Positions 8,007 through 60,493 of a stretch of 64,000 nucleotides of DNA are shown here, one piece after another (within the stretch, counting starts at the first letter, position 1; each line of letters begins with the position of its first letter). Both the position numbers and the translations under genes were made by a program. The notes below the pieces were generated by a model. That model was given only the letters and a program-made list of their open reading frames with translations, was not told where the DNA came from and did no database searches. The stretch comes from an uncultured Victivallales bacterium (GTDB lineage: Bacteria; Verrucomicrobiota; Lentisphaeria; Victivallales; UBA1829). The DNA is taken from assembly GCA_944391115.1 (NCBI GenBank), contig CALXSJ010000003.1, positions 167,574-231,573 on the forward strand, given 5' to 3'.

Positions 8007-10859
8007 TCAATATTCCAGATAGAAAATCCGGGTGACTTTTTCGGGAAGTTCCATGGTGAATTCCGTTGTGTTTTCTGCAATTTTTTCCCCGGAAAGCATT
8101 TCCGTGACTTTTACCGCTTTGCGTGGAAGTTTGATATGCTTTTTCCCCGCGGAGGAAGTATGGAGCATCAGGAACGATTCCCCCGGATAAAACACGTCGC
8201 CGCTGTCAATCCAGACATGGATGCCGGCCGATTGCGCCGCTTTCCGAATTTGCTTTCCTGAAATGCCGCCGGGCGAATAAGCGGAACGGAATCCATTCAC
8301 ATCCTTGAATTGCATGGCATTCAGACCTGTTGCACGAAATGACGGGAAATCACTTTTTTTCACGAAATCCAGCCCCGTCAACTGTTTCATGGAATCAAGG
8401 GACACTCCCTGTTCCGTCACATATCCCGGCGCGTAAATCCAAATTGCAGAGGCGTTATTCCTGCGCAATTTGCGGTGGATACATTCCGTTTTTTCGGGGG
8501 TTGACAAAAACTGATTCAGAAAAATATAGAGCTTATAATCCTTCATTTCCGGATTGTCCAGATCATCGGAAAGATAAATATCGCCCGCCAATCCGGAATG
8601 ATGAAGATTCTGCACGGTACCGAAAACAGCAGGTTTCAGGAACGCAGTCGCCCGTTCCGACCAGCAAATACTCTTGTAAGAAGGCTCGTCATAGATCAAG
8701 GCAATATCCGCAGGGGCCCTGCGGGAAACATTCAGAAATTTTTGACCGAGCTCCTGCAGGCGTGCTATTTCATTCATCATCGCTTCCGTATGAAACTGCT
8801 GATCTCCCGCCAAGGCAAACCACCAAACCCCGCTGCCTTTGGTCAGCATATATTCTGTCGTGCGCCGGAAAACTTCAATATTTTCGGATTCGCTTGGAAT
8901 GGTCACGAAATCAAAATCGGCAACTAAATGCGTGCGGTAATCCGCTTCATCCCAGAACATTTTACGGTGAAGCGCGAAGGAACCATTGAAATTTCCGATA
9001 TGGATGCCGGCCTCTCCGCCTTTTCGTTTGCTGTAATCGGTTGGAGTGCAGATAAAATCCACATTTTCATCTCGGAGAATTCCGCTTAAGGCTGAATGCC
9101 CCGAATTCAGCAGGGAACCATAGCCGGAATAGCGTTGCAGCATTTGATAACCATAGAAAAAGCCCACCAGTTTTTTCCCATGGGTCAGTTCCTTTACGAT
9201 TCCGGCCGCATTCTTTACAGAAGAAACCGTAATATTGTTGAGAAAGTCAAGATAATCCAGAATCGGACGAATTTTGCGCATATCACGGAAAAGTCCGTAA
9301 TCCATGCTCAGCCTTGATTCCGGAGAGGGAACCTTCACTTCGGAAAAAGATTTCAATCGGGTTCCCCATGTCCTGTTCAGCTCTGCAACTGTCCGGTATT
9401 TTCTCTCCATGGCATGCGCAAAATCCCGATGCGCAATCTCGGAATAATCCGTCAGTCCGATATCGGTTCCGTGATAATACCATTCGCTGGCCGCTCCTCC
9501 GGCAGGAAGATACCCGATCACATGACCGGCGTAATCGCTTTGCTCAATATGAGTAATCAGATCTCGCAGCATCCGGGAGCAGGACTGTGTCCATTCCGGA
9601 CTGGTAAGACCGCACCAGTATTTGGAACTCCGGTATTTTTTCTGATGAATATCCCAGGCGACAGAAATAAACTGCGGATTTTTCCTGAGCCACCACCACC
9701 AGGGAGTGTCCAGCTTGATTCTGAGGAGAATTTTTGCATTCGGAGACACCTTTGCAATGCTGCGGATATGTTCATCGACTGCCGCAAAATCATATTTTCC
9801 TTCCTCCTGCCACCAGCTGCCTGTTTTCGAATTTTTGTTATTGGTAGAAAGCATGGTGCTGAATAATGTGATTCCCGCGGCTGAAAAGTCCTTGATCGCT
9901 TCATAATTCGATTTTTCCGCCGAAGGCCACAATGCCGCAGGCCGCGGCATGAACATCATGGGATTGATATGTTTCCCATCAATGAATAATTGTGCTTCTC
10001 CCCGCGGAAAGATGATATCCGCAACGGTATTGCCCATCCTTCCGTCAGTCCTGGAAATGCTCCTGGCATATGCGGCCGTTCGTGGTAGAATCTTTTTGAA
10101 ATCAGGGTCAAAATCAGGATGTCTGATTTCAGGAAGCGGACGCTGGTCTTTCAAGGATTCCGAATTCCATATTTTTTTGATTACTGTTCCGGAAAGCGCT
10201 TCCCGAGTGATGGAAACTTTTGCAAAAGCTCCGCGGAACAGATTTGCAAAGCGGTTTCCAAACCGGGCAAATCCGAGGTTCAAAGTATCATCGCAAATCT
10301 TTACGGGATGGGACAGCGGAAGATCCGCCGTCAATATTCCGTTCAGATACAGTTTCACGGAAGAAGGCTCTACTGCCGCAACTGCCCAATTCCAGCGGTT
10401 TTCAACAGGTGAAATTTGATCCGCTTCCGGAAGATAGTGCTCTTTTGCGCAGATTCCATAATATCTGCATGTCTGCTGATTCCACCATTTAAATTCCAAT
10501 CTGGTCTTGTTCAGACCGAAAAAAAAGCCAAGATTATTTTCCGGCGCAAATGGCGTTTTGCCGAAAAGCAGTGCCTCCGGTGCAGAATTCCGGATTCTTT
10601 TATTGGGTGCGAACCAGACCGAGATGGTGAACGTATCCCTGTTTTTCACGTCTTCATCGACAATGATTCGGAATTGCGGCAGATAATTGTCCAAACGTCT
10701 ATCTTTCAGCGATTGCTTGCCGGCGCCAATAACGCCGCGCGGCAGAACACCCTTCGTGAAGTCATATTCTGCGGAGAATAAGTCTGCCGTGCAGACAATC
10801 ATTCCCGCAAATCCCGCTAAAATTCTGGACATCCAGTTTTGCTTCATTCTTATCATCAT
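8007..10859 (-). CDS. secreted LamG-domain + GH42-like (beta-galactosidase-like) glycoside hydrolase candidate
   Basis: 950 aa with a signal peptide (MSRILAGFAGMIVCTADLFSA). LamG-like block (TFTISVWF...VKLYLNGIL). TIM-barrel-like block (WWQEEGKYDFAAVDEHI; FAHAMERKYRTVAELNRTWGT). GH42M-like block (ADIALIYDEPSY; YKLYIFLNQFLS). Confidence 0.55.
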   Translation of the reverse strand: MMIRMKQNWMSRILAGFAGMIVCTADLFSAEYDFTKGVLPRGVIGAGKQSLKDRRLDNYLPQFRIIVDEDVKNRDTFTISVWFAPNKRIRNSAPEALLFGKTPFAPENNLGFFFGLNKTRLEFKWWNQQTCRYYGICAKEHYLPEADQISPVENRWNWAVAAVEPSSVKLYLNGILTADLPLSHPVKICDDTLNLGFARFGNRFANLFRGAFAKVSITREALSGTVIKKIWNSESLKDQRPLPEIRHPDFDPDFKKILPRTAAYARSISRTDGRMGNTVADIIFPRGEAQLFIDGKHINPMMFMPRPAALWPSAEKSNYEAIKDFSAAGITLFSTMLSTNNKNSKTGSWWQEEGKYDFAAVDEHIRSIAKVSPNAKILLRIKLDTPWWWWLRKNPQFISVAWDIHQKKYRSSKYWCGLTSPEWTQSCSRMLRDLITHIEQSDYAGHVIGYLPAGGAASEWYYHGTDIGLTDYSEIAHRDFAHAMERKYRTVAELNRTWGTRLKSFSEVKVPSPESRLSMDYGLFRDMRKIRPILDYLDFLNNITVSSVKNAAGIVKELTHGKKLVGFFYGYQMLQRYSGYGSLLNSGHSALSGILRDENVDFICTPTDYSKRKGGEAGIHIGNFNGSFALHRKMFWDEADYRTHLVADFDFVTIPSESENIEVFRRTTEYMLTKGSGVWWFALAGDQQFHTEAMMNEIARLQELGQKFLNVSRRAPADIALIYDEPSYKSICWSERATAFLKPAVFGTVQNLHHSGLAGDIYLSDDLDNPEMKDYKLYIFLNQFLSTPEKTECIHRKLRRNNASAIWIYAPGYVTEQGVSLDSMKQLTGLDFVKKSDFPSFRATGLNAMQFKDVNGFRSAYSPGGISGKQIRKAAQSAGIHVWIDSGDVFYPGESFLMLHTSSAGKKHIKLPRKAVKVTEMLSGEKIAENTTEFTMELPEKVTRIFYLEY

Positions 10860-10865
10860 CCTGTT

Positions 10866-11660
10866 TTACGGCAATATGCAATAATAAAAACGTCCCCACT
10901 GCCGATATCCGGCCGCATTCGTAAAAGGCCGCAGTGCATATCCGTTTGCCATAGTTGAATTCAATGTGGCCACATGTCCGTCAACCATCAATACATTGGC
11001 TTTCCGGTTATGAATCAAGGATAGTCCGCGTGTAACGGAGCTTGTTCGATAATCAAGCAGTCCAGTATATCCGTCGCTGCTCAAAATCTCAAAATAAAAA
11101 TCAGGACGCTGTTGACTGGTCAGCCAGTTGTCTCCAGTCCAGCCCCAATCGGAAGGCGTGTGAAGCCGGGAAAGAATATATCCGTGATAACTGGAACCTC
11201 CATTCCAGGTAATTGGAGAGAGCTGTGCCAGTCTTCCGCACAGGCCATATGTCTGCAAATATGTTGCCGTGTCGGAAAATTGATTTGACGGACAAAAAAA
11301 TACGTTCTGCTTCCTGGCGGTCAAATCCTTTTTGGTCAAATCCTTTTTTCTGTAAAGGAGAGAAAGAATCCTCCCCCATGGCTGAGCTTCGGAATATTCC
11401 TGTGTCATTTGGGAGGGCGTAATGGAATGATTCTTAAAATCGTCTGCATAATTCTGCAGCATAAGGAAACACTGACGCTGATTGGAAACACAATTTATGG
11501 CATATCCGCGTTTCCTGACGTTACTCAATGCAGGCAACAGCATGCCAGCCAGAATTGCAATGATCGCAATTACGATGAGAAGCTCTATCAAGGTAAATAT
11601 TTTCAATTTCAGTCCTGTATCCTCCCTGCAGCGTCCTTTTTCTTTGAAAAACAATCGCAT
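10866..11660 (-). CDS. prepilin-type N-terminal helix / H-X9-DG family pseudopilin-like protein
   Basis: N-terminal [24 protein letters not shown] and C-terminal [12 protein letters not shown] (exact H-X9-DG). AGGAGG sits 2 nt upstream of the ATG. Confidence 0.85.
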
Positions 11661-11688
11661 CGCCTCCTGATCTTGTTTTCTGTTATCT

Positions 11689-11716
11689 ATTATAATGAAA
11701 AAAACAATTTTGTCAA
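11689..11716 (-). promoter_or_regulatory. consensus sigma70 promoter for the pseudopilin/GH42-like operon
   Basis: On the minus strand, TTGACA (11716-11711), 16 nt, TATAAT (11694-11689). The palindrome TCAATTGA (11713-11720) overlaps the -35. Confidence 0.6.
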
Positions 11717-11727
11717 TTGAACAAAGG

Positions 11728-11756
11728 TTGCAAAACTTGTCTTTATGATGTATTCT
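11728..11756 (+). promoter_or_regulatory. candidate promoter driving leader copy A / AraC gene
   Basis: TTGCAA (11728-11733), 17 nt, TATTCT (11751-11756). The conserved leader begins a few nt downstream. Confidence 0.4.
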
Positions 11757-11761
11757 ATCGA

Positions 11762-11930: not shown

Positions 11931-11956
11931 GAATCAACGTCTCTTGGAGAAAAAAT

Positions 11957-12772
11957 ATGTATTTCGCACGCTACCGTTCCATTCCGGCGGATAAGATTCC
12001 GCCGATGCCGCTTGCGCTGAAAGGTGTCGGAAGATATCTGGCATACGCGGGATGGGAGGAAAAGAATGACGGAATTTACCGTCCGCACTGCGGAATGTTC
12101 TGGTGCAGAAGCGGAAAAGCGGCATTCGTAATTGGAACCCGGAATTGTACGCTCGAAGCGGAACAGGCAGTTTATTATTATCCTTTTGAAGCACATAAGA
12201 TTCATGTCATCAGCAGTTCCTTCGATTACTACTGGATGATATTCGACGGAATTGACGCTGCCGGTGTTCTCGGCATGTTCCAATATCCGAGGGAACCGTT
12301 TCACGCAGGTCCGCCGCCCGAAGAAATTTTCCGCCAGGCGTATGAAAGTTTAGAGGGGCTGAGTGATGCTGCTCGTTATCTCAGCGGAGCTCTTGTCTAC
12401 CGGATTCTGTCTCTTGCTGGCTCTCCGGCAGAGGCTCAAAAAGAGAAATCAAAAGAAGCGCATCTTGTTACCCGCTTCAGGCAGATTGTCGCTGAAGAAG
12501 CGGGAAACAGGGAACTGAATCTTATCAAAATTGCGGAACGGCTTCAATGTCATCGGACGACACTGACGCGGCTCGTCAAAAAGGAACTCGGAATCGTTCC
12601 CGCACAGTATCTGAATCATGTACGTCTTCAGAATGCCCTGGAACTGCTGGACAACAGCAATCTGACCGCCGCGGAAATCGGTGAAATCTGCGGATTCGCC
12701 ACACCGGAATATTTTTCCAGAAAGTTCAAGCAGCTCACGGGGGAACCTCCACGGCGTTTCAGGAACCACTGA
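11957..12772 (+). CDS. AraC-family transcriptional regulator
   Basis: 271 aa. C-terminal double HTH (IAERLQCHRTTLTRLVKKELG...; AAEIGEICGFATPEYFSRKFKQLTGEPPRRFR) with an N-terminal cupin-like sensor. Confidence 0.85.
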   Translation: MYFARYRSIPADKIPPMPLALKGVGRYLAYAGWEEKNDGIYRPHCGMFWCRSGKAAFVIGTRNCTLEAEQAVYYYPFEAHKIHVISSSFDYYWMIFDGIDAAGVLGMFQYPREPFHAGPPPEEIFRQAYESLEGLSDAARYLSGALVYRILSLAGSPAEAQKEKSKEAHLVTRFRQIVAEEAGNRELNLIKIAERLQCHRTTLTRLVKKELGIVPAQYLNHVRLQNALELLDNSNLTAAEIGEICGFATPEYFSRKFKQLTGEPPRRFRNH

Positions 12773-17874: not shown

Positions 17875-17889
17875 ATCAAGGAGAATCCA

Positions 17890-36309: not shown

Positions 36310-38748
36310 CTATTTTTCCTGCTGTGCGGAGGGCGGGGCCGGATCGTAGATTTTCCGCATGGAGACGTCGTCGATGTAAAGGCGCGAGTCGGCGGACTGG
36401 AGCGGCGGGCGGACGGCGAAGACGACGCGTTTCGCATCCTGCGGCATGGTGAAGCAGAATTCCAGCAGGACCCATTTCCCGACGGCTTCCGCCGGAACCG
36501 CCGCGCTGGCGAGCCAGGAACCGTTCGTCCAGTCCTTCCGGATGGAGACCGAGCCGAGATCGCCGTGCGCCGTTGCATCGTTCCGCTTCACGCGGCATGT
36601 GACACGGTAGCGTCCGCCTTTCGCGGGCACGATTCCCCATGTGTATGCCAGCATGTCATTCAGATTCTTCCCGAATGCCAGAGCACGTTCTCCGGAGAAC
36701 TTTTCCGTGCTGCTCCAGAAGACGTCCGTCTCCATTTTGCTGGAGCGCCATACGCCCCAGCCTCTGATCCCGGAAGGATCGCTCTGCTCCTGTCCCGGTT
36801 CCGGTTCAAAGCCGCCGTTTACGATATATTCCCGGTTTTCCGGATCGGTGTAGTTCTGGGTCAGGAAGAGCGCTTTCAGTTCGGGATCGGCGCTCTTTTC
36901 CGCCTGCGTCTTCCAGAATTGCCTTGTCTGATCCGGATCAGTGGCATGTTTCCGTTTCAGATAGGCTGTCGCGCGGGAGAGGGCCGGATCCGCCGTGCGT
37001 TCCAGAATCGGACGGGGAAGAAGATTGTACTGCGAGCGGAATTTCTCCAGACTCATGCGCTTTTTGTAGAAAATCTCATCTTCAATGCCCGGGCTGAACC
37101 GGAAATTCCGGATGTGCTCCAGTCCGGCATATCCCCGGCGCAGTTTCCGCAGCAGGTTTTCCAGGTCCACATCGCTCCCGATCTTCTGATCCGCGATCTC
37201 GCGGGAGGTCAGGTAAAGATCCAGATAGGAGCGGAAGAGCGAGTAGAACTCTTTCAGGCGCAGGAACCGTCGTTTGAAGGGTTCCGCCTGCGCCGTCCGT
37301 TCTGCGGAGGCAAGCTGTGCGTCCAGATACGCCAGATCGTTTCTCGTGTAGAATTTCATCTGATCGGGCGAACGCCAGTAGCGGAAGGTCGAAAAGATAT
37401 CGGGATCGCGTTCCGCGACTTCCTCGATGCGGCGGAAGAAGCGGGAAACCGCCGCGGAACTTTTCCCGTACATGGAGTCGAAATAGTCTTTCAGGAGAGC
37501 GTCCGCGTCGGCGTTCAGATTCCACGCCCCTTCGTCCAGAACATACTGGCGCGCGCCTTCGATTACGGTTTCACAGGGGAAATATTCGTTGAAAAGGACG
37601 CTCAATCCGAATTCCCGGTGCAGTTTTCTCCAGCGCTCCAGCTGCTTGTGCGGGAAGTAGCGGGGAATGAGGAAACCGCTTCCTGCGGTGTAGAGATAGT
37701 CGTAAACGCCGAAATGCCGGATGCCGGTTTTCTTCCACTCCCGCATCAGGGACTCGTTGATGCCGATGGTTTCGACCAGGATGTTCGGTTCCATCCGGAT
37801 GTTTTTCGGAACCGCCGAGGATCTTTTCCCGTAGGCGATGAAGGAAAGATATTTGCCCGGATGCCGTTTCGCGAGCGCCTTTGCCGCCTTGTTGTAGAAG
37901 CCCGCATACTGATTGCCGTATTTTTCATATTCTCCGTTGCAGAAGGAACAGAGACAGTCTCCGGCGGAATCATTCACGCCGAGGGGCAGTGAGATCATCC
38001 GCGGATTCCTTTTGAAATAACGGTCCGCGTATTCCATGGTGAGCTTGAGCAGTTCCGGATTGGCGAGACAGGGCTGCCAGCCTGCGCGCGAACGGGGAGG
38101 CGGAACCCTCCGCTTCCCGTCGATCAGCGGATAGAATTCCGGATGCGTTTTTCCGTAGACCTCCGGCGGGATGACCTCCCAGAAGGCATGGGTTCCCTTG
38201 CTTCTCATGCGGTCCGCCCGGGAGAAATAAGGATTCGGCGTGCCTCCCGCCAGATAGGATGCGATGTCCGGTTTTTCAAAGATGCGGACGGTTGCCGGCA
38301 GTTTGATCGATTCCAGTTCCGGGACGACCTCCTCCGACGGCATTCCCCCGAACTGCCGGTAAGGCGTGAAGCGTTTCAGAAAGTCGTAAAGGCCGTACCG
38401 GATGTTGCCGCCGATGTTCAGGGTTTTCCCGTCTTCGCAGAGCAGAAAGTAAACAGCATCCTTGTCCGTCCGGTTCATTTCCGCGGATTCCCGCGGAGAG
38501 AGAAAACGGATCACGTAATTGTCGAGCTTCGGATCAATTTTCCGGTAAATGGGCAGTTTTTTGCCTGCGGCGCGTCCCAGAATCTCGGAGAGAAGGCTGC
38601 GGCAGGTGATGTCGCCTTGCGGATCCAGCGCAAGATTCATTCGTTTTCCGTTGATTTCAATCAGTCCGTTTCCCGCTTCGGGCGGCAGTTTTCCCGCACA
38701 GACGGTCAAGGCCGGAATCAGAGCAAGAAAAGAGAGGCGGATTTTCAT
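36310..38748 (-). CDS. secreted DUF4838-like protein with C-terminal CBM4/9-like domain (paralog a)
   Basis: Signal peptide MKIRLSFLALIPALTVCAG. Shared paralog motif CLCSFCNGEY...FIAYG. C-terminal NGGFE...W...YIDDVSM, typical of CBM4_9. Confidence 0.6.
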   Translation of the reverse strand: MKIRLSFLALIPALTVCAGKLPPEAGNGLIEINGKRMNLALDPQGDITCRSLLSEILGRAAGKKLPIYRKIDPKLDNYVIRFLSPRESAEMNRTDKDAVYFLLCEDGKTLNIGGNIRYGLYDFLKRFTPYRQFGGMPSEEVVPELESIKLPATVRIFEKPDIASYLAGGTPNPYFSRADRMRSKGTHAFWEVIPPEVYGKTHPEFYPLIDGKRRVPPPRSRAGWQPCLANPELLKLTMEYADRYFKRNPRMISLPLGVNDSAGDCLCSFCNGEYEKYGNQYAGFYNKAAKALAKRHPGKYLSFIAYGKRSSAVPKNIRMEPNILVETIGINESLMREWKKTGIRHFGVYDYLYTAGSGFLIPRYFPHKQLERWRKLHREFGLSVLFNEYFPCETVIEGARQYVLDEGAWNLNADADALLKDYFDSMYGKSSAAVSRFFRRIEEVAERDPDIFSTFRYWRSPDQMKFYTRNDLAYLDAQLASAERTAQAEPFKRRFLRLKEFYSLFRSYLDLYLTSREIADQKIGSDVDLENLLRKLRRGYAGLEHIRNFRFSPGIEDEIFYKKRMSLEKFRSQYNLLPRPILERTADPALSRATAYLKRKHATDPDQTRQFWKTQAEKSADPELKALFLTQNYTDPENREYIVNGGFEPEPGQEQSDPSGIRGWGVWRSSKMETDVFWSSTEKFSGERALAFGKNLNDMLAYTWGIVPAKGGRYRVTCRVKRNDATAHGDLGSVSIRKDWTNGSWLASAAVPAEAVGKWVLLEFCFTMPQDAKRVVFAVRPPLQSADSRLYIDDVSMRKIYDPAPPSAQQEK

Positions 38749-40049
38749 TTTTCATTTTCCTTCCAGGGGGAGGTTGTGATCTTCAGCGGACGTGTTTCCG
38801 TCAGTGTGCCGGAACGGTCCCGCAGCGTATATTCCACGCGGTAGTCTCCGGGAGCCAGACGTTCCGAAGGCAGGGTTACGGTCATGGAACGGACGCTGAC
38901 CGGTAAAATCTTCCCGGCATTTCCGTTTTTCCCCGTGATCCGGCACTCCAGAGAGAGCGCATCTTCGGGAAAGGCGACGTCAAGCGCGGTGCCGGGCGCT
39001 TCGCCCTGATACTGGATGAACGGATGCGCCGTGACCTTCAGCGCATGCGGGACGTCCAGGTTGCGGAATATCTGCCGCACCGTTTTTCCGTTGCCGGCTT
39101 TCACGGCGAGCGTCAGCAGATGCTTTGCGCCGGACAGAAGGCGCGGACGCAGCGGAATTTCCTTCTTTTCCCCGCTTTGCAGAACGATTTTCTGTTCGGC
39201 GAGGACGAGATGTTTTCCGTTCCGGTAATCTTCCGCGATGACGCTTCCTTCCCATGGCGCCCGGGTGTTGTTGACGACCGTGCAGCGGATTGTGTTTTCG
39301 CCCCTTTTCAGACGTTCGGGAAAGCGGACGTCGTCAAGAAAAACCTTCCAGGGGGTGAGGTTGAGTCCTTCCACTTTTCCGAACCGTTCCGTGAAATGGA
39401 AATCCCCGTATGCGCAGCTCCAGCTGGAAAGTTCGCTCGGAAGCACATACTTCTCCCGGCAGAGGTTCATGGCGAATGCGGTCTTTCCGGGCGTGATGCC
39501 GAGCGTATAGAAGGGGATGGCGAACTCCGCCGTATATCCCGCTTTCCCGACGTGAACCGCATACTGCCAGACGCCGTTCCATTTCTCGTCGCCGTTCCGG
39601 GTGGAGCGGTCGAAGCCGACGCCGTCGTAGTTCACGACAAACTGATAGAGTTTTTCCGGGTCGGCAGGATCGGCAATGTAAACTTCCAGACAGTCGTCCA
39701 TCCAGACCTTGCCGTCGAATTTGCGCCCGCTGGGAGTGAACCATTTCTGAATGTCCCTGTCCTGCGCGTCGAATGCGACATAGAGATTGACGTCGTCGAA
39801 GACAACCATGGCATGCGTGTGAAAGAGCGGTTTTTTCGGTGTGTTGAAGAGCACGAAGGCCGGGGTGCGCACCGCGTTTTTCCAGACAGGATCATCCAGT
39901 TTCCCGTCGATGCGCGGCGGTTCCTCGCACCGGACGAGCTTCATGCGGGGAACGGGAATTTTTTTCTCCGTTCCGGAGAGTTCCGCAGCGGATCCTGCGG
40001 CGAGCAGGAGAAGAATCAGAAGTGTTTTCATTGCCGTTTTCATTTGCAT
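38745..40049 (-). CDS. secreted CBM9-like (DOMON-like) carbohydrate-binding protein
   Basis: Signal peptide. PPRIDGKLDDPVWKNA...YVAFDAQD...AEFAIPF pattern of carbohydrate-binding family 9. 4-nt overlap with the downstream gene. Confidence 0.6.
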   Translation of the reverse strand: MQMKTAMKTLLILLLLAAGSAAELSGTEKKIPVPRMKLVRCEEPPRIDGKLDDPVWKNAVRTPAFVLFNTPKKPLFHTHAMVVFDDVNLYVAFDAQDRDIQKWFTPSGRKFDGKVWMDDCLEVYIADPADPEKLYQFVVNYDGVGFDRSTRNGDEKWNGVWQYAVHVGKAGYTAEFAIPFYTLGITPGKTAFAMNLCREKYVLPSELSSWSCAYGDFHFTERFGKVEGLNLTPWKVFLDDVRFPERLKRGENTIRCTVVNNTRAPWEGSVIAEDYRNGKHLVLAEQKIVLQSGEKKEIPLRPRLLSGAKHLLTLAVKAGNGKTVRQIFRNLDVPHALKVTAHPFIQYQGEAPGTALDVAFPEDALSLECRITGKNGNAGKILPVSVRSMTVTLPSERLAPGDYRVEYTLRDRSGTLTETRPLKITTSPWKENEK

Positions 40050-42319
40050 ACCTCCCGGAGAAGCATGATTTCCTGTGCAGCCGCCCAGCGGATTTTTTCC
40101 ATGGCGGGTTCGTCCATCACGCCGTTTTTATCGACTTCATTCCAGAACGGAATCATCTCCCCTTTCAGCTGTCCGAGGAATTTTTCCGCCCGGTCCGCCT
40201 CACTGTTTCTGCCCTGTTCCCGCGCACTCCGGATCATCCGCTCCAGCGTATACGCATATTTGTAATCCGTCACGCCTTCACGGAGTCCTTCCCCCGCCAG
40301 TGTCGTGTTGGAGACCCGCTTCACCGGCGTTTCGATCTCTTGTGAGGAGCCGAACTCCTTTCGCGCGTAAACCATGTAATAACTCATCCTGCCGAATTCC
40401 AGTTCGTCGCGGTCGGGACCTGCCCCATACGTCCATGCCACACAGGCGGGCAATCCGGTCCGGTAGAAGAGAAAACCGCTCTGATAACGGTTGGTGATGC
40501 CGGTTCCGGGCACATAGCTTCCCGGCCCGAGGAGCCAGAGTTTCGTGCGCTGGCGTTTTGCCGCTGCGGAAAGGCGGTCATAATACTCCTTCGAGAATTT
40601 TACGTTGCCATTTACGGAAACATCCAGTCCCCATTTCCCGAATTCCACGAACTCCCGATAAGGATACACGGTGGAGGAGGTCCTGACTCCGGCCTTTTTC
40701 GCGAGCGGATATTCCCATGCCGCCTGGGAGAGTCCGCCGTAAATATGCGGTTCGTCCAGTCCCTGATAGTACCAGGCGGAACCTTTGAAGTGTTTCTTCA
40801 TCCAGGAGTCCAGTTTCCGCAGGTGCTCCACGAAGGCGTCCGCGAGTTTCGGATCTCTGCATTCGGGGTAGGGGAATCTGCGGTGATCGGAGAGGTTTTT
40901 TCCGTAAAGGTTCCGGTACATGGTTCCCTCCAGTCCCCAGCCGAAGTCAATGACAAGCGGTCCGCGCATCCCGGCAGCTTTCAGACGTTCGCAGAGAATG
41001 CGCGCCGCCTGTTCCGTATAGATCCCGCCGTGATGGATCATGCCGGTCTGCCCGTAGGAGGCAATCTCCTCGAAATGTTTTTTCTGGATGTCGGCGCGGC
41101 GGTTGTTTCTGTATCCTCCGGCCCAGAAACTGCCGCCGTACATGATCCAGTCCGCCGGCGGCTTCCGCAGCGTGAAGGGCAGCACGCGGAGCACAACGGG
41201 AATCCGGCACTCCAGATTCTTTCCCGTCAGGCGGACCGTGCCGCGGTAGAATCCCGCGGGCGTGTCTTCCGGAAGGCGCGCCTGCATCCAGAGAAAGGTA
41301 TTGGCGTCTTTTCCGGCGGAGAGAGGCTCAAACGGGTAGAGCACCTCTGGAATTGTGAAATATTCCGTGCTGCTCCAGGCCGGCTTGTTGCGGAAGGGAA
41401 CGTGGAAGAGTTCCCATGCTTCCGGCGCGATCTCATGCTTCCCGTCCGCGCTTCTCAGCATGGAAACTTGAAAGGAATCCAGCGTGACCCCGCGGAAGGT
41501 ATGCAGAACGAAATGGAGATTGCAGTATTCCCCCGGCACGGTGAATTTACGGAGCGCATCTGTGATTTCGCCGCGTCCCGGACGGCTTTCCGGCGCGATC
41601 CGGGATGGTTCCCTGCGGTAGACGACCCAGCCCCGTTTCCGTTCCTCCGGCGTATAATCCGCGGGCGGGTCCTGGATTACACGTGTCCGTTTCCAGATGC
41701 GTTTCCCCGCACGCAGAACCCCATCGGGGAAAGGGATCTCCCGCATGGACGGAGAGGAGAGTTTCAGTTCGCCGTTTCCTGCGAAGGAGAAGGATACCGA
41801 TACGGATTCCGTCGTGATCGGTGTAAGGAGCTTCAGGCCTCCGATGGTGATTTCCCTTGCTTTTCCGGATGGCTCAAAATCGAAGGTCCGCACAGATTCG
41901 CCGCCCGCCGCGCCCATGGCTTCCCGATCCCCGTGAAATATGACTGTGACACGCAGCGCCTTGTCATGAAAGCGGTTGACCTCTCCGCTTGTGCGATAGG
42001 TGAAGCGCAGCGCGTAGGGCGTCAGCTCCCGGACGGCGATTTTTCCCGTTGTGCCGACCGTGCCGCGCCCCCGGTTTTCTGTCTGAATCGCAAGTCCCCC
42101 TTCTGCAATGGAACGCTCCGCCGAGAGCGCGGGAGTGCTCCGGAACTCCCATGCTGTGCTTTTTTCGTCAAGACAAGGCAGGATTCCGCTCTCCTGGCCT
42201 GGCGTGGCGCAGCACGCGGAGATGCCGCAGAGTGCGCCGGCACATAAAAGAAGCGCCGTTTTGCTCCCCGCAAGGCATGACACTGAAAATTTCGTTCTCT
42301 CTTTTTCCGGTGATCTCAT
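40040..42319 (-). CDS. lipoprotein, DUF4091/GH123-like glycoside hydrolase candidate (paralog of 51571-53412)
   Basis: Lipobox-like LCGISAC. Shares VLRVLPFTL and TLAGEGLREGVTDYKY blocks with the 51571-53412 protein. ATG at 42319 follows GGAGGA; the ORF track starts at 42331. Confidence 0.5.
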   Translation of the reverse strand: MRSPEKERTKFSVSCLAGSKTALLLCAGALCGISACCATPGQESGILPCLDEKSTAWEFRSTPALSAERSIAEGGLAIQTENRGRGTVGTTGKIAVRELTPYALRFTYRTSGEVNRFHDKALRVTVIFHGDREAMGAAGGESVRTFDFEPSGKAREITIGGLKLLTPITTESVSVSFSFAGNGELKLSSPSMREIPFPDGVLRAGKRIWKRTRVIQDPPADYTPEERKRGWVVYRREPSRIAPESRPGRGEITDALRKFTVPGEYCNLHFVLHTFRGVTLDSFQVSMLRSADGKHEIAPEAWELFHVPFRNKPAWSSTEYFTIPEVLYPFEPLSAGKDANTFLWMQARLPEDTPAGFYRGTVRLTGKNLECRIPVVLRVLPFTLRKPPADWIMYGGSFWAGGYRNNRRADIQKKHFEEIASYGQTGMIHHGGIYTEQAARILCERLKAAGMRGPLVIDFGWGLEGTMYRNLYGKNLSDHRRFPYPECRDPKLADAFVEHLRKLDSWMKKHFKGSAWYYQGLDEPHIYGGLSQAAWEYPLAKKAGVRTSSTVYPYREFVEFGKWGLDVSVNGNVKFSKEYYDRLSAAAKRQRTKLWLLGPGSYVPGTGITNRYQSGFLFYRTGLPACVAWTYGAGPDRDELEFGRMSYYMVYARKEFGSSQEIETPVKRVSNTTLAGEGLREGVTDYKYAYTLERMIRSAREQGRNSEADRAEKFLGQLKGEMIPFWNEVDKNGVMDEPAMEKIRWAAAQEIMLLREVCK

Positions 42320-42339
42320 GAATTCCTCCATTATCTGTT

Positions 42340-43074
42340 TTACGGGATCTGCAGCGGCACCGCGTCTCCTGTCGTCCAGTAGAATATCTTCGAGCCGACG
42401 GTTGTTTTCCCGTTCAGGTCTTTGAAATTATGCCATTTGACGCTGAAGTCCGGCATGACCCAGCCGGAACCCTCCGGATGATTGACGAAGTGAGGTCCTC
42501 CGGTATTCAGGATATACTGATCTCCCGCAAGCGGCACAACGTCGAATTTTTTCGAGAAGCTGTTCCATTGCGGGCGGTTCCGTTTCAGGGGATTGGTGAC
42601 GTTCCAGCGGTCCCAGTTGGAGGTGGAGCCGATTCCCGCGAGAAGCATATAGCAGGTCCGGTTTCCCTTTTCATGTTCGCTTGCTCCGTCCGGCATGTGG
42701 AAGGCTGGGCATTTCAGAAGCCCCTCACGCGCCTCCTTCATGGAATAGGCGATGCTGTAATGAAGATAGGTTTTGACGAAATAATAAAGGCCGCTCATGG
42801 GTTCGCCGCTGTTTCCCCTCCGCCAGTCGCACGGATCGTTTGCCGTTGCGCCGGGATTCGGAAAATAGTCGTTCCAGTCATTGGCGTAGTTCAGCAGACT
42901 GAGTCCGACCTGCCGCAGATTGCCCGTGCAGGCCGTCCGCAGGGCCTTGCTTCTGGCTTTTCCGAGAGCGGGAAGAAGAAGTCCGGCAAGAATTACAATG
43001 ATTGATATGACAACAAGAAGTTCTATCAGCGTAAATGAATTTCTTTTCATGTTGTTCAACTCCTTTCCTTTCAT
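42340..43074 (-). CDS. prepilin-type N-terminal helix / H-X9-DG family pseudopilin-like protein (variant H-X9-DF)
   Basis: [24 protein letters not shown] and C-terminal [15 protein letters not shown] at 43074 overlaps the upstream stop (TGATG). An alternative ATG at 43050 ([12 protein letters not shown]) has AAGGAG 9 nt upstream. Confidence 0.8.
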
Positions 43075-44078
43075 CAAAGCTCCGTATAACTGCTTTTCAC
43101 CATATGGATGAGTTTCAATGTTCCGTATTTGGCCGCTTTGTCATTTTTATCGCCCGGGATCATATCGTCATAGAAGCGCCAGGGCGCCTCGTCCGTGCTC
43201 AGATTGTGCGCGATGACATAAGGTTTTCCGATTCCCGGGTGCTGTTCCAGGTATTTGAGATATCCGATCCAGTGATCGAGGCGGAAGAATATCACGTCGG
43301 GGTGCTGTTTTTCCAGGAGTTCCTTGGCTACGGAATAGCCGTCGTCGTTGCAGTAATACAGCAGGGATTCGTCCACTTTTTTTTCCGCTTTCACCAGCGC
43401 TTCCCGGACCTCCCGGAGCGACTCCCTGTGCGAAAGGAAATACTCGACTCCGGTGATGGCTGCGATTCGTTCGCCGCCCGAACGGCGGAAGGCTTCCGCC
43501 ATAAGTTTCACCGTGTGACGGCTTTTGCGCGGAAGCGACTGCGGATGGTGCGGGGAGATATCATAGTTTCCCAGCACGAAATAAGGGATCCCGCGGCCTT
43601 TCATCGTCTCGAGAAGCTTGTCGTCGACGATCCCGGTAATCAGCAGTCCGTCAATTTCCGGGTTGCGGTCGAGCCATTCCCCGAGTCCCCAGTCCTCATT
43701 GTAATTGCTTCCGGGGAGAACCTGAAACCCCTCGTGGCGTGCGACGCGGTAGATTTTTTCCATCATGGCGCCCTGCATCATCGGATTTTCCCGGTTGTTG
43801 AAGAATCCAATCTGGTAGCAGAGTCCGCTTTTCAGGTTCGAACTGACGAATGTCCCCTGTTTCGTATCCGTATAAACAAGTCCGGCGCGGCTCAGGATGG
43901 CAATGGCGGAAAGCACCACCTGACGCCCCACTCCGAGCTTTTCCGCAAGCGCGCGCACGGATGGAATTTTTGCTCCGGGATTGAATTTCCCGTCGCGGAT
44001 CATCCTTGTCAGGTGCGTTGCGACAATCTGGCATTGCGGCGCATAGATCGTCTTGTCAAGTGGAATATTGCTGACCAT
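43074..44078 (-). CDS. GntR-type wHTH + LacI/PBP-type sugar-binding domain transcriptional regulator
   Basis: [32 protein letters not shown] (GntR wHTH) followed by a ~250-aa periplasmic-binding-protein-like domain. Confidence 0.75.
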
Positions 44079-44512: not shown

Positions 44513-45409
44513 ATGTTGCTCAACCCAGGGAAAATACGCGGCATGAAAGGACAGTTTGAAGTCATATCCACCGAAGAGGATCAATACAATACGACACTGT
44601 ATGAGAGCAGTCTGACCCTGACTTTTTCCATTGACGGAGTACCGTCGACCCTCTCCTCCACACTCTACAACTACGGAATCACTTCCCGGCAGAAACAAAG
44701 ACAGTTCCAGCATTTCGCCGCGCCGTTTCCACGCTTTTTCCTTTTTGAAAGCGCGGGAGGGATTTTGGAGGATGGATGCGGAACGGAGTATTTTCTTCGT
44801 CCCGGGCAGCGCTATATCATTACTTCAGGGCATCCCTTTTTCATCACTTATCTGCCGGGATCGCTGTATTATCACGCCCATTTCGGCGTGCAGGACTGGA
44901 CCGGGCAGCAGCTCTTCCGCCATGCTCCGCTGCTTCTGGAGTTTCCCTCGCCGGACGACGAAATGATTCTCCGGCATGTCTGGAAATCCAGATATGCCGG
45001 CGGAGTGCTGGCAATTCTGGCCCAAATTCAGGTAGAGTATCTGCATCGGGACTGGAAGGAATTTCACAGCGAATATGAGCTGTATTCGAAATTCCAGGTG
45101 CTTTTCCCCCTGCTCAAAACGATACCGCCGGCACAGTTGCGGGTGGAAGCACTGGCGGAAGCCATGAACATGGCGAGGGCGGCATTTTCCCGCAGTTTCA
45201 GCTCCACGCTTGGCATCACCCCGAAGGAGTTCCTGCGCCAGTATTACCTGTCCCGCGCGGGGGAGCTGCTCTGTCATTCCGGAGCCTCCATTGCAAAGAT
45301 CGCCCATATGCTGGGACATAACGACACTCATAATTTTTTTCATGTGTTCAAACGAATTACCGGCATGACGCCTGCGGAATACCGCAGAACCCGCAGAAAA
45401 ACAAACTGA
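44513..45409 (+). CDS. AraC-family transcriptional regulator
   Basis: C-terminal double HTH (EALAEAMNMARAAFSRSFSSTLGITPKEF...IAKIAHMLGHNDTHNFFHVFKRITGMTPAEYRR). The start is uncertain (44513 or 44543). Confidence 0.85.
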   Translation: MLLNPGKIRGMKGQFEVISTEEDQYNTTLYESSLTLTFSIDGVPSTLSSTLYNYGITSRQKQRQFQHFAAPFPRFFLFESAGGILEDGCGTEYFLRPGQRYIITSGHPFFITYLPGSLYYHAHFGVQDWTGQQLFRHAPLLLEFPSPDDEMILRHVWKSRYAGGVLAILAQIQVEYLHRDWKEFHSEYELYSKFQVLFPLLKTIPPAQLRVEALAEAMNMARAAFSRSFSSTLGITPKEFLRQYYLSRAGELLCHSGASIAKIAHMLGHNDTHNFFHVFKRITGMTPAEYRRTRRKTN

Positions 45410-45582: not shown

Positions 45583-45659
45583 GGGAGATTCCATGAGGAA
45601 CTGCAATCACAGAATCTGCAATGCAGTTGAAGCGGAGGGAGATTCCATGAGGAACTGCA
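45583..45659 (+). repeat. 23-nt direct repeat duplicating the RBS+ATG of the pseudopilin-like gene
   Basis: GGGAGATTCCATGAGGAACTGCA occurs at 45583-45605 and again at 45637-45659, 54 nt apart and in frame. The inverted repeat AACTGCA (45599-605) / TGCAGTT (45622-628) lies between them. Confidence 0.9.
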
Positions 45660-46327
45660 GAGGACGGGAAAACGGAAGATTTACATTGATAGAGCTTTTA
45701 ATTGTCATTGCAATCATTGCAATTCTGGCAGCCCTGCTGCTGCCGGCCTTGAACAAGGCGAGAATGGTTTCTCTCCGGATAGACTGCATGTCCAGGGAAC
45801 GTCAGCTGGGAGTGGCGTTCCAGCTTTACGCGGACAACTTCGGCGGATATCTGCCAGCCTACCTCAATTATTCCGACAGCAAAACTGTTCTGGGATATCG
45901 CTGGATCGACGTGCTTGTGAAAAACATGCCGGACATCATAAAAAACGGCAGCGACCGCAGATATGTCTGCAAATCAATCCCGGAACTGCGGGAGATCTTC
46001 AGCGCCTGGGCGATCAACTGCACGGTCACGGGAAGTGTTTCCGCCGCCGGGCCGATGTCTCCGGAAGCCGTTCCCCTGCATCGCCTGAAGTCCGCTTCCC
46101 GGACCTGCATCATCACGGATGGCCGGAAAGGGTATGAAGGCCTGAACTATCCTGACCGCTTCCGCCCCGGCTATGAGTATCGCTCGGTGGAATACCGTCA
46201 TGAAAAGGGGGCTGATTTTCTTTTTGCGGACGGGCATACCGCTTATGCCATTCCCAATTACGCCACCGGTTTTTCCGCGGATTTTATCGCCGGCATCGAC
46301 AAGAACGACGGAAAATTGTATGAATAA
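45593..46327 (+). CDS. prepilin-type N-terminal helix / H-X9-DG family pseudopilin-like protein
   Basis: [24 protein letters not shown] and H-EKGADFLFA-DG (exact H-X9-DG). An alternative start at 45647 has an identical RBS context. Confidence 0.85.
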   Translation: MRNCNHRICNAVEAEGDSMRNCRGRENGRFTLIELLIVIAIIAILAALLLPALNKARMVSLRIDCMSRERQLGVAFQLYADNFGGYLPAYLNYSDSKTVLGYRWIDVLVKNMPDIIKNGSDRRYVCKSIPELREIFSAWAINCTVTGSVSAAGPMSPEAVPLHRLKSASRTCIITDGRKGYEGLNYPDRFRPGYEYRSVEYRHEKGADFLFADGHTAYAIPNYATGFSADFIAGIDKNDGKLYE

Positions 46328-46362: not shown

Positions 46363-49233
46363 ATGAAATCACCCGTGATTCTGCTTGCCGCGGGAGCGCT
46401 TGTTTTCGGTGCTCATGCGGGAGACCTGCTCTTCGGCAACGGAAAAACCGCCTGGAAAATTGTCATTCCCGCCAAAGCCGCCGCTCCGGAACAGTATGCC
46501 GCGGAGGAGCTGAAAAACACACTGAGGAAGATTTCCGGCGCAGATTTCATCATTCGGAAAGATGACTCTCCCGCCGGGAAAAGAAACATCGTCATCGGTT
46601 CTCCTTCCACCTCTCCGGCGGTCCGGAAACTGGAGAAGCCGCTTCAGCTCCGCAGGGACGATGCCGATATGCTTTCCGTGCGGACCCTGAACGGCAACCT
46701 CTATCTGACCGGCAGCCATCCGCGCGGCGCACTTTACGCCGTTTACTCTTTCCTGACCGGACCGCTGGAGGTCCGCTGGTTCTGGCCGGGCGACGGCGGC
46801 GAATTCATTCCCGCACGGAAAAGTTTTGAACTGCCGGATTTGAACTTCACCTATCGTCCGCCGTTCCGCTACCGGGTGATGGAGCTGACCTACACCCATC
46901 TGCATCTTCCCACGGAAGCCTGGCTGGCGCGGAACTTCATGAACATGGGTTCCCGCACCCGCAAGTTCCGCGATCAGGCCGGATTTGTGGCGAACACTCC
47001 CGCCGGGCACGCGGTCTGCATTCCCGGCGGCGACATCCGGAAGCGTTTTGCCGAGCATCCGGAGCAGTTTGCCCTGGTTGACGGGAAACGCAGCATTTAC
47101 GGTTTCTCCGGCTGCTGGTCGAATCCGGATTTCACGAAGGAGGTGCTGGAAAGACTGGACGAGGCCGTCTTCCTGTCCAGGGGGAAAATGCTTTGCACTT
47201 ATCCCGCGGATACGCCGCACCGGTGCTCGTGTGAAAAATGCACGGCGATCCATCCGGATCCGTCATCCCGCTGGTTTGTGTATTATGAGAAGCTGATGAA
47301 AGAGCTGCGCAGGCAGTATCCGGATCTCAAGTTTGCAAGCATTGCCTATCAGGAATATCAGAAGGTGCCGCAGACGCCGGTCCGCGGGCTGGAATATGTG
47401 GCCTACTGCCAGTATGACCGCTGCTTCATTCACGGACTGCATGATCCGGATTGCAAATCCAACCGCGACAGCGTCGCCACGCTGAAACGCTGGCAGGAAA
47501 AAACTCCGATGGGGATTTACGGGTATGAGTTCTGCGCGCTGAACAAGCCCATGTACATGCCGATCTGGAATGTCATCGCCGATGAGATGAAGGTGTACCG
47601 CGATATGAAAATGGTCTATATGAAAACCGAAATGCCGACTCAGTATCCGAAAAATGCGCGCCGCGCGGAGCTGAAACCTCAGATTTACCGTCTCGCCTAC
47701 TACATGTACGTCCGGCTGATGTGGAATCCTGATGCGGATGTCAATGCTCTGCTCCGCGACTGGTGCGACAAGGTCTACGGTCCGGCAGGAAAGGCCCTGT
47801 TCGCCTATCACAGACGCATGGCGGAGGCGTGGGACAACTGCCCCGGTCATACCGGTTACCTGGGCAATTCCGTTGGAACCCTCGCGAAAAACATGCTGAA
47901 TCCCGAAGTGATCCAGTTCTGCCGCGACCGGTTCAACGCCGCGGACAAGGCCGTGCGGAACCTGGCGGACGCCCGTCTCCGGAAACGCTGTCAGGAGGAG
48001 GTCGATCTGGAAAAGGAGCTGTTCCGCAACTGGGTGAAGGAGTATCATCTTTCCCTCGATGGCGCGCTGAGCGTCAATCTGCCCCGCCATCCGGCGGGAA
48101 CGGATTTCGCTTCTCTTCCGGAACTTCATGTGACCGGCCGTGCCGGGGATCAGCCTCTGCCGACGGAGATGCGCATGTACTGGTCGGAACAGGGGCTGCA
48201 CATTCAGATGATCGCAGGAGACTCCGCGATGAAAAACCTCCGCAAAGGTTCCCGCAGGCGTGACGCCTCCGGGAAGGACGCCGACAGAATCGAGGTTGCG
48301 ATCGACCTGAATGACAATTCCCCGTCCCGCCGCTTCTGCGTGAACGCCGCCGGCGGCATCTGCGACGCCCTCGGCGCGGATCCCGCCTGGAATCCCGACT
48401 GGAAAAGTTCCGTCAAACTGGAAAAGGACCGCTGGATTGCCGAAATGACGATTCCGTTCCGTGCGCTGGGCGCGAGTGCGCCGGAAGAGGGGCGGTATTG
48501 GAAGATCAGCATTGTGCGGCACGGAAGGAACGCCGTCTGCGGATTTCCGTCTCCTGTCGACCGGAATCTTTCGCAGGGAGCGAATGTCTTCTTCTCGAAA
48601 AAAAGTTCATGGGATGACAAGCTGGTCTGGATTTCTATTTCGAATCACAGATTTACCATTGTGAAGGGAGCTCTCCAGAAAGACGGCTGGCTCGCGAAAG
48701 GCTATCCGGGACCGGAGGGTGTCATGAACATTGACACGTCCGATGCCAGGATGTTCTTCATCGAGACCTTCCGGAATGACATGCCCCGGGAATTCTATGA
48801 ACAGAAGCTGATTCCCGCGGTGAAGAACGGCGCGGTCGCGGTTTTCAACTGCTATTACGGAGTGGAAAAGCTGCATGTCAATTTCAATGATCCGACCTAC
48901 AAGATGGTCTTCCGGCCGGATATTCCCAAAATCCGGCGTCCGAGCTGGGTGACCGGGAGCTCCTTCGCGACCACGCCCAACAAAATCAGCCTCTCCAGAT
49001 GGCAGACGCCTCCGGGCAATCTGATTCCGGCGCATCCGGAAAGCTGGGAAATTCTGGCGAAACAGCTTAACAGCAAAGGGGATAAGGATTATCCCATCAT
49101 GATGGCGCGTCCGCTGGGAAAGGGGATGATTCTGCTGGTCGGGACTCTCAGACCCTACCAGATTCCCCTCATTCTGGCGAATGCCCGGGAATACAACAAG
49201 GTCATTTCCCGCAAAAGCGCCGGAACGGAATAA
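46363..49233 (+). CDS. secreted DUF4838-like protein + CBM9-like + C-terminal GH42M/GATase1-like domain (paralog b)
   Basis: Signal peptide MKSPVILLAAGALVFGAHA. Paralog motif CSCEKCTAIH...SIAYQ. CBM9-like block (WIAEMTIPFRALG). The C-terminal ~200 aa are homologous to the next ORF. Confidence 0.6.
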   Translation: MKSPVILLAAGALVFGAHAGDLLFGNGKTAWKIVIPAKAAAPEQYAAEELKNTLRKISGADFIIRKDDSPAGKRNIVIGSPSTSPAVRKLEKPLQLRRDDADMLSVRTLNGNLYLTGSHPRGALYAVYSFLTGPLEVRWFWPGDGGEFIPARKSFELPDLNFTYRPPFRYRVMELTYTHLHLPTEAWLARNFMNMGSRTRKFRDQAGFVANTPAGHAVCIPGGDIRKRFAEHPEQFALVDGKRSIYGFSGCWSNPDFTKEVLERLDEAVFLSRGKMLCTYPADTPHRCSCEKCTAIHPDPSSRWFVYYEKLMKELRRQYPDLKFASIAYQEYQKVPQTPVRGLEYVAYCQYDRCFIHGLHDPDCKSNRDSVATLKRWQEKTPMGIYGYEFCALNKPMYMPIWNVIADEMKVYRDMKMVYMKTEMPTQYPKNARRAELKPQIYRLAYYMYVRLMWNPDADVNALLRDWCDKVYGPAGKALFAYHRRMAEAWDNCPGHTGYLGNSVGTLAKNMLNPEVIQFCRDRFNAADKAVRNLADARLRKRCQEEVDLEKELFRNWVKEYHLSLDGALSVNLPRHPAGTDFASLPELHVTGRAGDQPLPTEMRMYWSEQGLHIQMIAGDSAMKNLRKGSRRRDASGKDADRIEVAIDLNDNSPSRRFCVNAAGGICDALGADPAWNPDWKSSVKLEKDRWIAEMTIPFRALGASAPEEGRYWKISIVRHGRNAVCGFPSPVDRNLSQGANVFFSKKSSWDDKLVWISISNHRFTIVKGALQKDGWLAKGYPGPEGVMNIDTSDARMFFIETFRNDMPREFYEQKLIPAVKNGAVAVFNCYYGVEKLHVNFNDPTYKMVFRPDIPKIRRPSWVTGSSFATTPNKISLSRWQTPPGNLIPAHPESWEILAKQLNSKGDKDYPIMMARPLGKGMILLVGTLRPYQIPLILANAREYNKVISRKSAGTE

Positions 49234-49313
49234 AAGGATGAAGCGGAACGCCGGGACGGGATTCCGTTTTTCCGGATTTTCCGGATCGTCAAAAACAGAA
49301 AGGATGTTTCACT

Positions 49314-50036: not shown

Positions 50037-50142
50037 GGGACTCAGGCGGCGATACGGGAGGCGGCTCTTCCGTCTGCTCATGGGAGAGGCGATCCTGTGC
50101 GGGCGGATCGGCGGCGGGGACGGGAAACACAGGAAACAGGCA

Positions 50143-51468: not shown

Positions 51469-51570
51469 GACCGGTTTCTGCAGCCATGGCAGACATGATT
51501 GCGGAAACGGCAAAGACGTTGTTTCAAGAAGGTTGTCATTTGGGGAAAATTAACAGGAGAAGGAGGATGC

Positions 51571-53412: not shown

Positions 53413-53414
53413 GC

Positions 53415-60480: not shown

Positions 60481-60493
60481 TGAGGTTTCGAGA

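Follow-up and report, generated by a model that had tools for sequence, protein, structure and literature searches.

How is a pilin-like protein processed when its leader does not end in the residue that marks the cleavage site of bacterial prepilins? The question is raised by a stretch of 64,000 nucleotides of DNA (referred to throughout as the window; positions 167,574 to 231,573 of contig CALXSJ010000003.1, assembly GCA_944391115.1) from an uncultured Victivallales bacterium, in which four open reading frames (ORF1-4) encode proteins that begin like type IV pilins, with a leader followed by Phe at +1 and Glu at +5 of a hydrophobic helix, yet have no Gly at position -1. In canonical bacterial pilins the residue at -1 is nearly always Gly, and set against these the lack of Gly in four proteins out of four is far from chance. 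With good support, the window can be assigned to the phylum Lentisphaerota, and within it to a member of Victivallales type, and it is this affiliation that gives the answer its first part, as the missing Gly proves to be a trait of the family in that phylum. The second part, that the leader is still cut off directly before Phe, may be true but is considerably less certain.

A six-frame scan of the window, which has a G+C content of 56%, finds exactly four FTLIELL motifs, one in each of ORF1-4, with the Phe codons starting at 11597 (minus strand), 43035 (minus), 45680 (plus) and 58714 (plus). All four ORFs carry the segment FTLIELL(I/V)VI(A/S)II(A/V)ILA..LLPAL, with Phe at +1, Glu at +5 and around 20 hydrophobic residues, and the residue at -1 is Ile (ATA) in ORF1, Ser (TCA) in ORF2, Arg (AGA) in ORF3 and Phe (TTT) in ORF4, in agreement with a preliminary description that had read the same core, Glu and -1 residues from the sequence. 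That the -1 codon might itself be a non-canonical start was considered and rejected from the identity of these codons. Position -1 is in-frame for every candidate start of the four ORFs, so the choice of start cannot bring back a Gly, and a re-examination of the alternative starts, which the preliminary description had suggested, restored Gly at -1 to none of them. The synonymous codons differ among the four copies, which argues for selection on the protein and not on the DNA; with so many synonymous differences, maintenance of the N-terminus as a DNA repeat or via gene conversion can be rejected for the window. A relaxed motif found no further pilin-like N-termini in the window or in the Lentisphaerota loci.

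The preliminary description had envisaged that a logo of the whole family might show Gly at -1 in most members, leaving these four as artefacts of their start codons. The logo does not bear this scenario out, as position -1 is essentially unconstrained among close relatives. Only two of the 116 scorable best homologues of ORF1 have Gly at -1, and when the search, whose first query contained KIFTL, was repeated with an ORF3 query beginning at Phe, the 119 close relatives found had K17, I14, S13, N12, G10, V9, R9, A7, F6 and others at this position. Gly thus makes up 8% and, being still 10 of 119 when the query begins with Phe, rules out bias in the query as the source of an Ile-rich -1. A diverse representative set of mixed lineages is of another composition, with Gly in 42 and Ala in 29 of 149.

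The lineages were compared in a scan of GTDB species genomes, in which 80 loci with organism names were scanned in six frames. In Verrucomicrobiota all 44 sites have Gly or Ala at -1 (22 of each), in Planctomycetota all nine do and in other or unlabelled lineages 14 of 17, against only four of the 37 sites (four Gly and no Ala) in Lentisphaerota (Lentisphaeria, Victivallales and Oligosphaeraceae, with the taxonomy checked). The difference between Lentisphaerota and the other two named phyla together has a Fisher p of 1.6e-20; the lineage labels here are those of the record titles, and GTDB-style 'Verrucomicrobiota' could take in Lentisphaeria, yet every record under that label had Gly or Ala. 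The other residues found at -1 in Lentisphaerota are R, S, K, P, T, N, I, D, Y, H, L, Q and E, whilst the mature N-terminal sequence is identical across all three phyla. The few Lentisphaerota members that have Gly at -1 were considered as separate, small, true pilins, a possibility that was rejected as they are of the same H-X9-DG type of 240-310 residues. As Gly occurs at -1 in just 8-11% of the Lentisphaerota members of the family, four out of four without it is what would be expected in this phylum. It is therefore well supported, by comparison of sequences, that the small residue at -1 has been lost family-wide in Lentisphaerota, and that this is a trait of the phylum and not a peculiarity of four genes.

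The leader as a whole carries little information, with approximately 0.4-0.7 bits per position from -8 to -1 (around 0.6 at -1 itself) and no conserved residue, compared with 4.3 bits from +1 onward, although the homologues were retrieved via similarity of their N-termini and the conservation of +1 to +24 is inflated by this. Phe at +1 and Glu at +5 are invariant in around 385 relatives, and the lineages that have Gly or Ala at -1 conserve the LLPAL segment to the same degree. Glu5 of pilins is known to be dispensable for cleavage and required for assembly (PMC4471445), and a charged residue that lies within a membrane helix and goes unused should drift. The invariance of Glu+5, together with the sharp boundary of conservation at Phe, therefore suggests that the proteins still enter a pilin-type pathway, and entry into such a pathway would in turn imply that an enzyme blind to -1 cuts off the leader before Phe.

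Leaders that the preliminary description had called unusually long are real in at most two of the four proteins, as ORF2 and ORF3 have shorter likely starts and two of the four original start calls are probably too long. The likely start of ORF2 is the ATG at 43050, which follows a strong Shine-Dalgarno sequence (AGGAAAGGAG) and gives a leader of five residues, MKRNS. That of ORF3 is likely the ATG at 45647, which also follows a strong Shine-Dalgarno sequence (GGAGGGAG), gives an 11-residue leader (MRNCRGRENGR) and a protein of 226 residues, and is the choice of the gene callers on identical public contigs. An exact 23-nucleotide direct repeat, GGGAGATTCCATGAGGAACTGCA, is found upstream of ORF3 at 45583-45605 and 45637-45659, with a spacing of 54 nucleotides; within it are the ATG and the first codons (MRNC) together with the Shine-Dalgarno sequence, and it is this duplication that provides ORF3 with two candidate starts. 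ORF1 as called, from 11660, has a leader of 21 residues, an alternative TTG at 11606 would reduce it to MKI, and a homologue with 80% identity (P0002), called from ATG-AAA-ATT, also has the leader MKI. ORF4, called at 58603 behind a good Shine-Dalgarno sequence (AAGGAG), has a leader of 37 residues. The leaders of relatives are typically basic and 3-12 residues long, and in-frame upstream stops leave many of those in Lentisphaerota with no more than 8-13 residues, as in MKKY and MKRKP, each directly followed by the Phe; none of the leaders bounded in this way ends in Gly.

Many relatives also carry one or two upstream copies of a repeat of approximately 65-70 codons (P0016, P0019, P0055, P0079, P0090, P0097, P0102, P0146 and L084:1-76), of which there are none in the window. 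Each copy opens with a degenerate FT(L/M/I)I(E/R/K)(L/F)L-MRKSCKSGISFRQQ and runs up to a closing PCSSVLTSRVK(I/M)(R/K)I-FTLIELL, so that the 5' end of the gene is duplicated around an inserted element. Judging by the sequence, this element could be mobile or promoter-carrying and could target the conserved FTLIELL-coding sequence. The upstream copies result in many over-long ORF calls among the relatives. In P0130 and P0275 there is a different short insert (VACQPKPAGRRPIRAA or ACPAVAPSRGDGRRPVRSA) between two N-terminal copies of FTLIELL.

ORF1-4 are, with good support, members of a very large family of type IV pilin-like proteins of the PVC (Planctomycetes, Verrucomicrobia, Chlamydiae) superphylum, the features of which are an N-terminus of class III type, a DUF1559 region and, close to the C-terminus, an H-X9-DG motif. 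An exhaustive HMMER search found approximately 201,000 cluster representatives at E<=1e-3, and the relatives in Victivallales and Lentisphaerota are named 'prepilin-type N-terminal cleavage/methylation domain-containing', 'DUF1559 domain-containing' or 'H-X9-DG' proteins. With TIGR02532 all four proteins score above the cutoff of 16.3 (20.7, 17.7, 21.4 and 21.5 for ORF1-4), the matches starting at Phe, which is position 4 of the profile, so that the Gly of the profile is skipped. With PF07963 ORF2 is above the cutoff of 21.2 at 27.2 and the other three are just below it at 19.1-20.2, the matches again starting at Phe. For PF07596 (DUF1559, SBP_bac_10; cutoff 23.3) the scores are 27.1 for ORF2 and 21.3 for ORF4, with no match for ORF1 or ORF3; these matches span just the first 50-60 or so of the 268 model positions, and most homologues of ORF1 and ORF3 have a precomputed PF07596 assignment. 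H-X9-DG or a variant of it sits 30-43 residues before the C-terminus in all four, being complete in ORF1 and in ORF3 (HEKGADFLFADG) and altered in ORF2 and ORF4, and TIGR04294 scores for ORF1 only (Table 1). The H, N, D and G of this region are conserved to at least 90% in alignment A1, and all four proteins further have a conserved Cys36.

The term pseudopilin-like, used in the preliminary description, does not hold if type II secretion system (T2SS) pseudopilins in the strict sense are meant. Scores for GspG (TIGR01710, 19.8-28.8 against a cutoff of 88.85), GspH (TIGR01708, 19-22 against 80) and GspI (TIGR01707, 17 against 44) are far under the equivalog cutoffs, with matches confined to the N-terminal helix, and an identity of this type was rejected. 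An AlphaFold (AF2) model of ORF1 (predicted local distance difference test score, pLDDT, 78; predicted template modelling score, pTM, 0.78) predicts an N-terminal helix of 51 residues and a beta-rich head. A Foldseek search of the PDB gave no match at E<=0.001 for the head domain, the helix alone matching full-length type IV pilins, none of these at E<=0.001. A profile of the family searched against PDB sequences matched PilA, geopilin, PilE and GspG, with a best E of 2e-14, and aligned the Phe of the family with residue 1 of mature pilin chains, including those of solved pilus filaments. A two-lobed periplasmic-binding-protein fold finds no support in the model, which predicts one long helix and a single beta-rich head, and the fold search confirmed neither a solute-binding fold nor the head of a pseudopilin.

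For an A24 prepilin peptidase, neither tblastn and phmmer with E. coli GspO nor a scan for the GxGD motif gave a candidate in the window or in around 90 related loci, and the window is without a secretin, ATPase, platform or peptidase gene of a T2SS or type IV pilus cluster. On the 4.4-Mb metagenome contig of a relative (L088) there are two genes of PilB type, one of the PilT family (467 bits, cutoff 319) and one PilC/GspF gene, which lie at L088:157-6054 and within 10 kb of three genes of the family; no pilin or prepilin peptidase gene adjoins this cluster.

The surroundings of the family genes are of a different kind from a pilus operon, as all four in the window lie within operons for carbohydrate use (Table 1). 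At the ORF1 locus a divergent AraC gene is followed by ORF1 and a GH42-like/LamG protein (GH, glycoside hydrolase), and at the ORF2 locus the order is GntR, ORF2, a protein of 763 residues, CBM9 (CBM, carbohydrate-binding module) and DUF4838. ORF3 stands between AraC and a series of DUF4838/GH67N-like, 240-residue, GH32, GH123-like and 833-residue proteins, and at the ORF4 locus a divergent AraC is followed by GH3, ORF4, LamG and DUF4838. From inspection of their translations, the first genes downstream of the four family genes have N-termini that are signal-peptide-like or lipoprotein-like, the latter being the case in the 763-residue protein downstream of ORF2, which has no Pfam match. The layout of regulator, family gene and carbohydrate gene recurs in three relatives on Mb-scale contigs (L085, L087 and L088). 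Across the Lentisphaerota loci and these three contigs, 30 of 44 family genes have an ORF of at least 250 residues within approximately 280 nucleotides downstream, and seven of ten such large ORFs tested have carbohydrate-active or carbohydrate-binding domains, namely DUF4838/GH67N, rhamnosidase, heparinase II-like, CBM9/CBM4_9, rhamnogalacturonase-like and beta-helix domains. An operon contains, as a rule, a single family gene.

Table 1. Positions within the window of ORF1-4, their sequence features and the adjoining genes
Feature	Position	Strand	Remarks
ORF1, pilin-like DUF1559/H-X9-DG family protein, 264 residues as called	10866..11660	-	-1 = Ile
ORF1, conserved N-terminal segment F1-L24, class III-type hydrophobic helix	11526..11597	-	
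ORF1, H-X9-DG motif	10977..11012	-	TIGR04294 18.9, cutoff 19
950-residue protein, GH42-like + Laminin_G_3, signal peptide by inspection	8007..10859	-	7-nucleotide gap downstream of ORF1
AraC-family regulator, divergent from ORF1	11957..12772	+	
ORF2, pilin-like family protein	42340..43074	-	-1 = Ser; C-terminal variant H-X9-DF
Three genes downstream of ORF2	36310..42331	-	763 residues; CBM9 (434 residues); DUF4838 + CBM_4_9 (812 residues)
GntR-family regulator directly upstream of ORF2, same strand	43074..44078	-	
AraC-family regulator upstream of ORF3	44513..45409	+	
ORF3, pilin-like family protein	45593..46327	+	-1 = Arg; canonical H-X9-DG at 46199-46234
Genes downstream of ORF3	46363..55865	+	DUF4838/GH67N-like (956 residues), 240 residues, GH32-like, GH123-like, 833 residues
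AraC-family regulator, divergent from the GH3-ORF4 operon	55909..56790	-	
GH3 gene directly upstream of ORF4	56919..58598	+	4-nucleotide gap
ORF4, pilin-like family protein	58603..59427	+	-1 = Phe; C-terminal variant H-X9-GG
Genes downstream of ORF4	59455..62965	+	Laminin_G_3 (341 residues), DUF4838 (823 residues)

A pilin-like gene is not part of every glycoside hydrolase cluster of this genome, as a group at 17134-23602, in which an IclR regulator stands with three GH10 paralogs and a mandelate racemase/enolase-like gene, is without one. The operon of ORF1 (GH42-like gene, ORF1 and AraC gene; 8007-12772) stands out by a third-position G+C of 0.46-0.51, compared with around 0.65-0.80 elsewhere in the window, a composition that suggests the operon was acquired horizontally and recently. 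A gene at 30740-31633 matches aminoglycoside 3-N-acetyltransferase (PF02522, E=1.6e-56).

The reading that we favour is cleavage before Phe by an A24-type peptidase that no longer reads -1, with the protein then in a pilin-type pathway, and we put its probability at about one half. By this reading the short basic leader and hydrophobic helix would insert the protein into the inner membrane N-in/C-out, a lineage-adapted prepilin peptidase blind to -1 would cut off the leader directly before Phe+1, and a PilB/PilT/PilC-type machine would handle the processed protein via Glu+5 and the alpha-1 helix. The processed protein could then be an operon-specific pilin-like module that works alongside the neighbouring glycan-degrading enzymes, in glycan capture, enzyme export or display. 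More tentatively, and with the odds somewhat against it, this may be extended to a class III pathway of Lentisphaerota that ignores -1, through a reshaped A24 pocket or through another enzyme, and that serves hundreds of proteins per genome, one per glycan operon, via PilB, PilT and PilC. Several points weigh against cleavage by such an enzyme. The residues at -1 include K, R, I, F, P, D and E, and we know of no characterised bacterial prepilin peptidase that accepts bulky or charged residues there. The enzyme proposed is itself hypothetical, given that the window and the related loci contain no A24 gene, and according to a review the Gly is 'absolutely critical', with bacterial leaders 'invariably' ending in it (PMC4471445). 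The data on -1 in Lentisphaerota are those of the DUF1559-type family, and the conservation from +1 to +24 is, as said above, inflated by the way the homologues were retrieved. Furthermore, the head has no match among solved structures, so that a role in glycan use is drawn solely from the gene neighbourhood. On the other hand, Verrucomicrobiota and Planctomycetota use Ala as often as Gly, which points to some relaxation at this position within the PVC superphylum.

It has also to be asked whether there is any cleavage at all. The protein could be an uncleaved signal anchor that retains its leader and has its head in the periplasm, a bitopic inner-membrane protein that would bind or sense glycans as an operon-specific partner of the neighbouring enzymes or of a transporter. 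A -1 that looks unconstrained, Pro, Asp and Glu included, fits no known peptidase site; leaders of down to three residues (MKK, MKR, MKI) would make retention cheap; and the missing A24 gene, the published label of DUF1559 proteins as solute-binding and the typically single family gene per operon are all in keeping with an anchor. However, with a phylum this old and paralogs in the hundreds in each genome, Phe+1 and Glu+5 should then have drifted and they have not, the identical mature N-terminus follows a canonical Gly or Ala in the sister phyla, relative L088 has PilB, PilT and PilC genes, and the fold search lent no support to a periplasmic-binding-protein fold, and we consider an uncleaved anchor somewhat unlikely. 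The preliminary description had named both an uncleaved anchor and a peptidase of different specificity; both have survived the analysis. Removal of the leader by something other than an A24 enzyme, a non-A24 protease or aminopeptidase that trims it, or a cut elsewhere than before Phe, would agree with a leader of such low information content and with the lack of an A24 gene. It appears improbable, as neither a candidate enzyme nor another conserved site was seen, the conserved block begins exactly at Phe as it does in cleaved pilins, and LLPAL, being conserved to the same extent where -1 is Gly or Ala, does not qualify as a Lentisphaerota-specific site of cleavage. Finally, genes with misplaced starts, pseudogenes or chance ORFs within a family that truly has Gly at -1 are hardly credible as an explanation. 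The starts of ORF1 and ORF4 are indeed ambiguous and ORF3 has two candidates, but -1 remains in-frame under any of them, gene calls on several independent public contigs give identical proteins, and hundreds of homologues share the same -1 feature; the in-frame -1, the -1 residues of relatives and the stop-bounded leaders of relatives together refute an artefact of start codons.

A whole bacterial phylum has very many N-termini that are otherwise textbook class III and lack the Gly that ends the leader, while its sister phyla keep Gly or Ala. Should the leader be cleaved, Lentisphaerota would hold a natural variant of prepilin peptidase with a new specificity, which would inform how A24 enzymes recognise their substrates, and motif-based predictors of pilins that require Gly would be expected to miss the Lentisphaerota set. 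Should it not be cleaved, a pilin scaffold would have been turned into a membrane anchor in which Phe1 and Glu5 are still kept. Either way, the linkage to glycoside hydrolase operons is a lead on the function of DUF1559 in a very large family of the PVC superphylum. That this family is very large and has a pilin-type N-terminus in curated models is already known; DUF1559 has been described as PVC-specific, papers call its proteins solute-binding, and a 2023 paper lists it as of unknown function. What is new is the absence of Gly at -1 in the Lentisphaerota members, an ordinary gene family with an unusual processing signal, of which no mention was found in the literature on DUF1559, H-X9-DG, or Lentisphaerae or Victivallis prepilins or pseudopilins. 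In the Lentisphaerae strains WC36 and zth2 'secretion system-related' genes are reported to be up on laminarin, and polysaccharides to induce what were described as 'filamentous phages' of 0.4-8 um (PMC11361711).

Compared with known systems, the proteins are closest in their N-terminus to type IV pilins and pseudopilins, with which they share the short basic leader, Phe+1, Glu+5, a hydrophobic stretch of approximately 21 residues with Pro22 and the alignment of the family profile to mature PilA, PilE and GspG from Phe1 and, as far as the model goes, a helix of around 50 residues that is followed by a beta-rich head. They differ in the lack of Gly at -1, in a head that matches no solved pilin and in the position of the window genes in glycoside hydrolase operons rather than in pilus or T2SS operons. 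The DUF1559 (PF07596)/H-X9-DG (TIGR04294) family of the PVC superphylum, of which Planctopirus limnophila has 68 paralogs and Rhodopirellula baltica 74, has the same mature N-terminus, DUF1559 N-terminal region, Cys36 and C-terminal H-X9-DG. At -1 there is a Gly or an Ala in all 53 of its Planctomycetota and Verrucomicrobiota sites, unlike in those of its Lentisphaerota members. Natural substrates without Gly at -1 do exist, since streptococcal ComGC and some other pilins have Ala there, but Ala is still a small residue, whereas in Lentisphaerota it is found at none of the 37 sites and the residues are mostly bulky or charged.

The archaeal bindosome offers a likeness of another sort, as there too a pilin-type N-terminus is found on proteins that do not form filaments and that serve carbohydrate use. 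Its proteins have substrate-binding folds of the ATP-binding cassette (ABC) type and partner ABC transporters, whilst neither an adjoining ABC transporter nor an ABC-type binding fold was seen here. The tolerance of its processing enzyme PibD at -1 is, to our knowledge, limited to small residues (Gly, Ala, Ser). PibD is an archaeal A24 enzyme that is flexible around the cleavage site and cuts leaders of 3-4 residues (PMC4187195), and if the Lentisphaerota proteins are indeed processed by a pathway blind to -1, that pathway would be what the bindosome is in archaea, in a bacterial form, and would depart from the rule that prepilin leaders of bacteria end in Gly.

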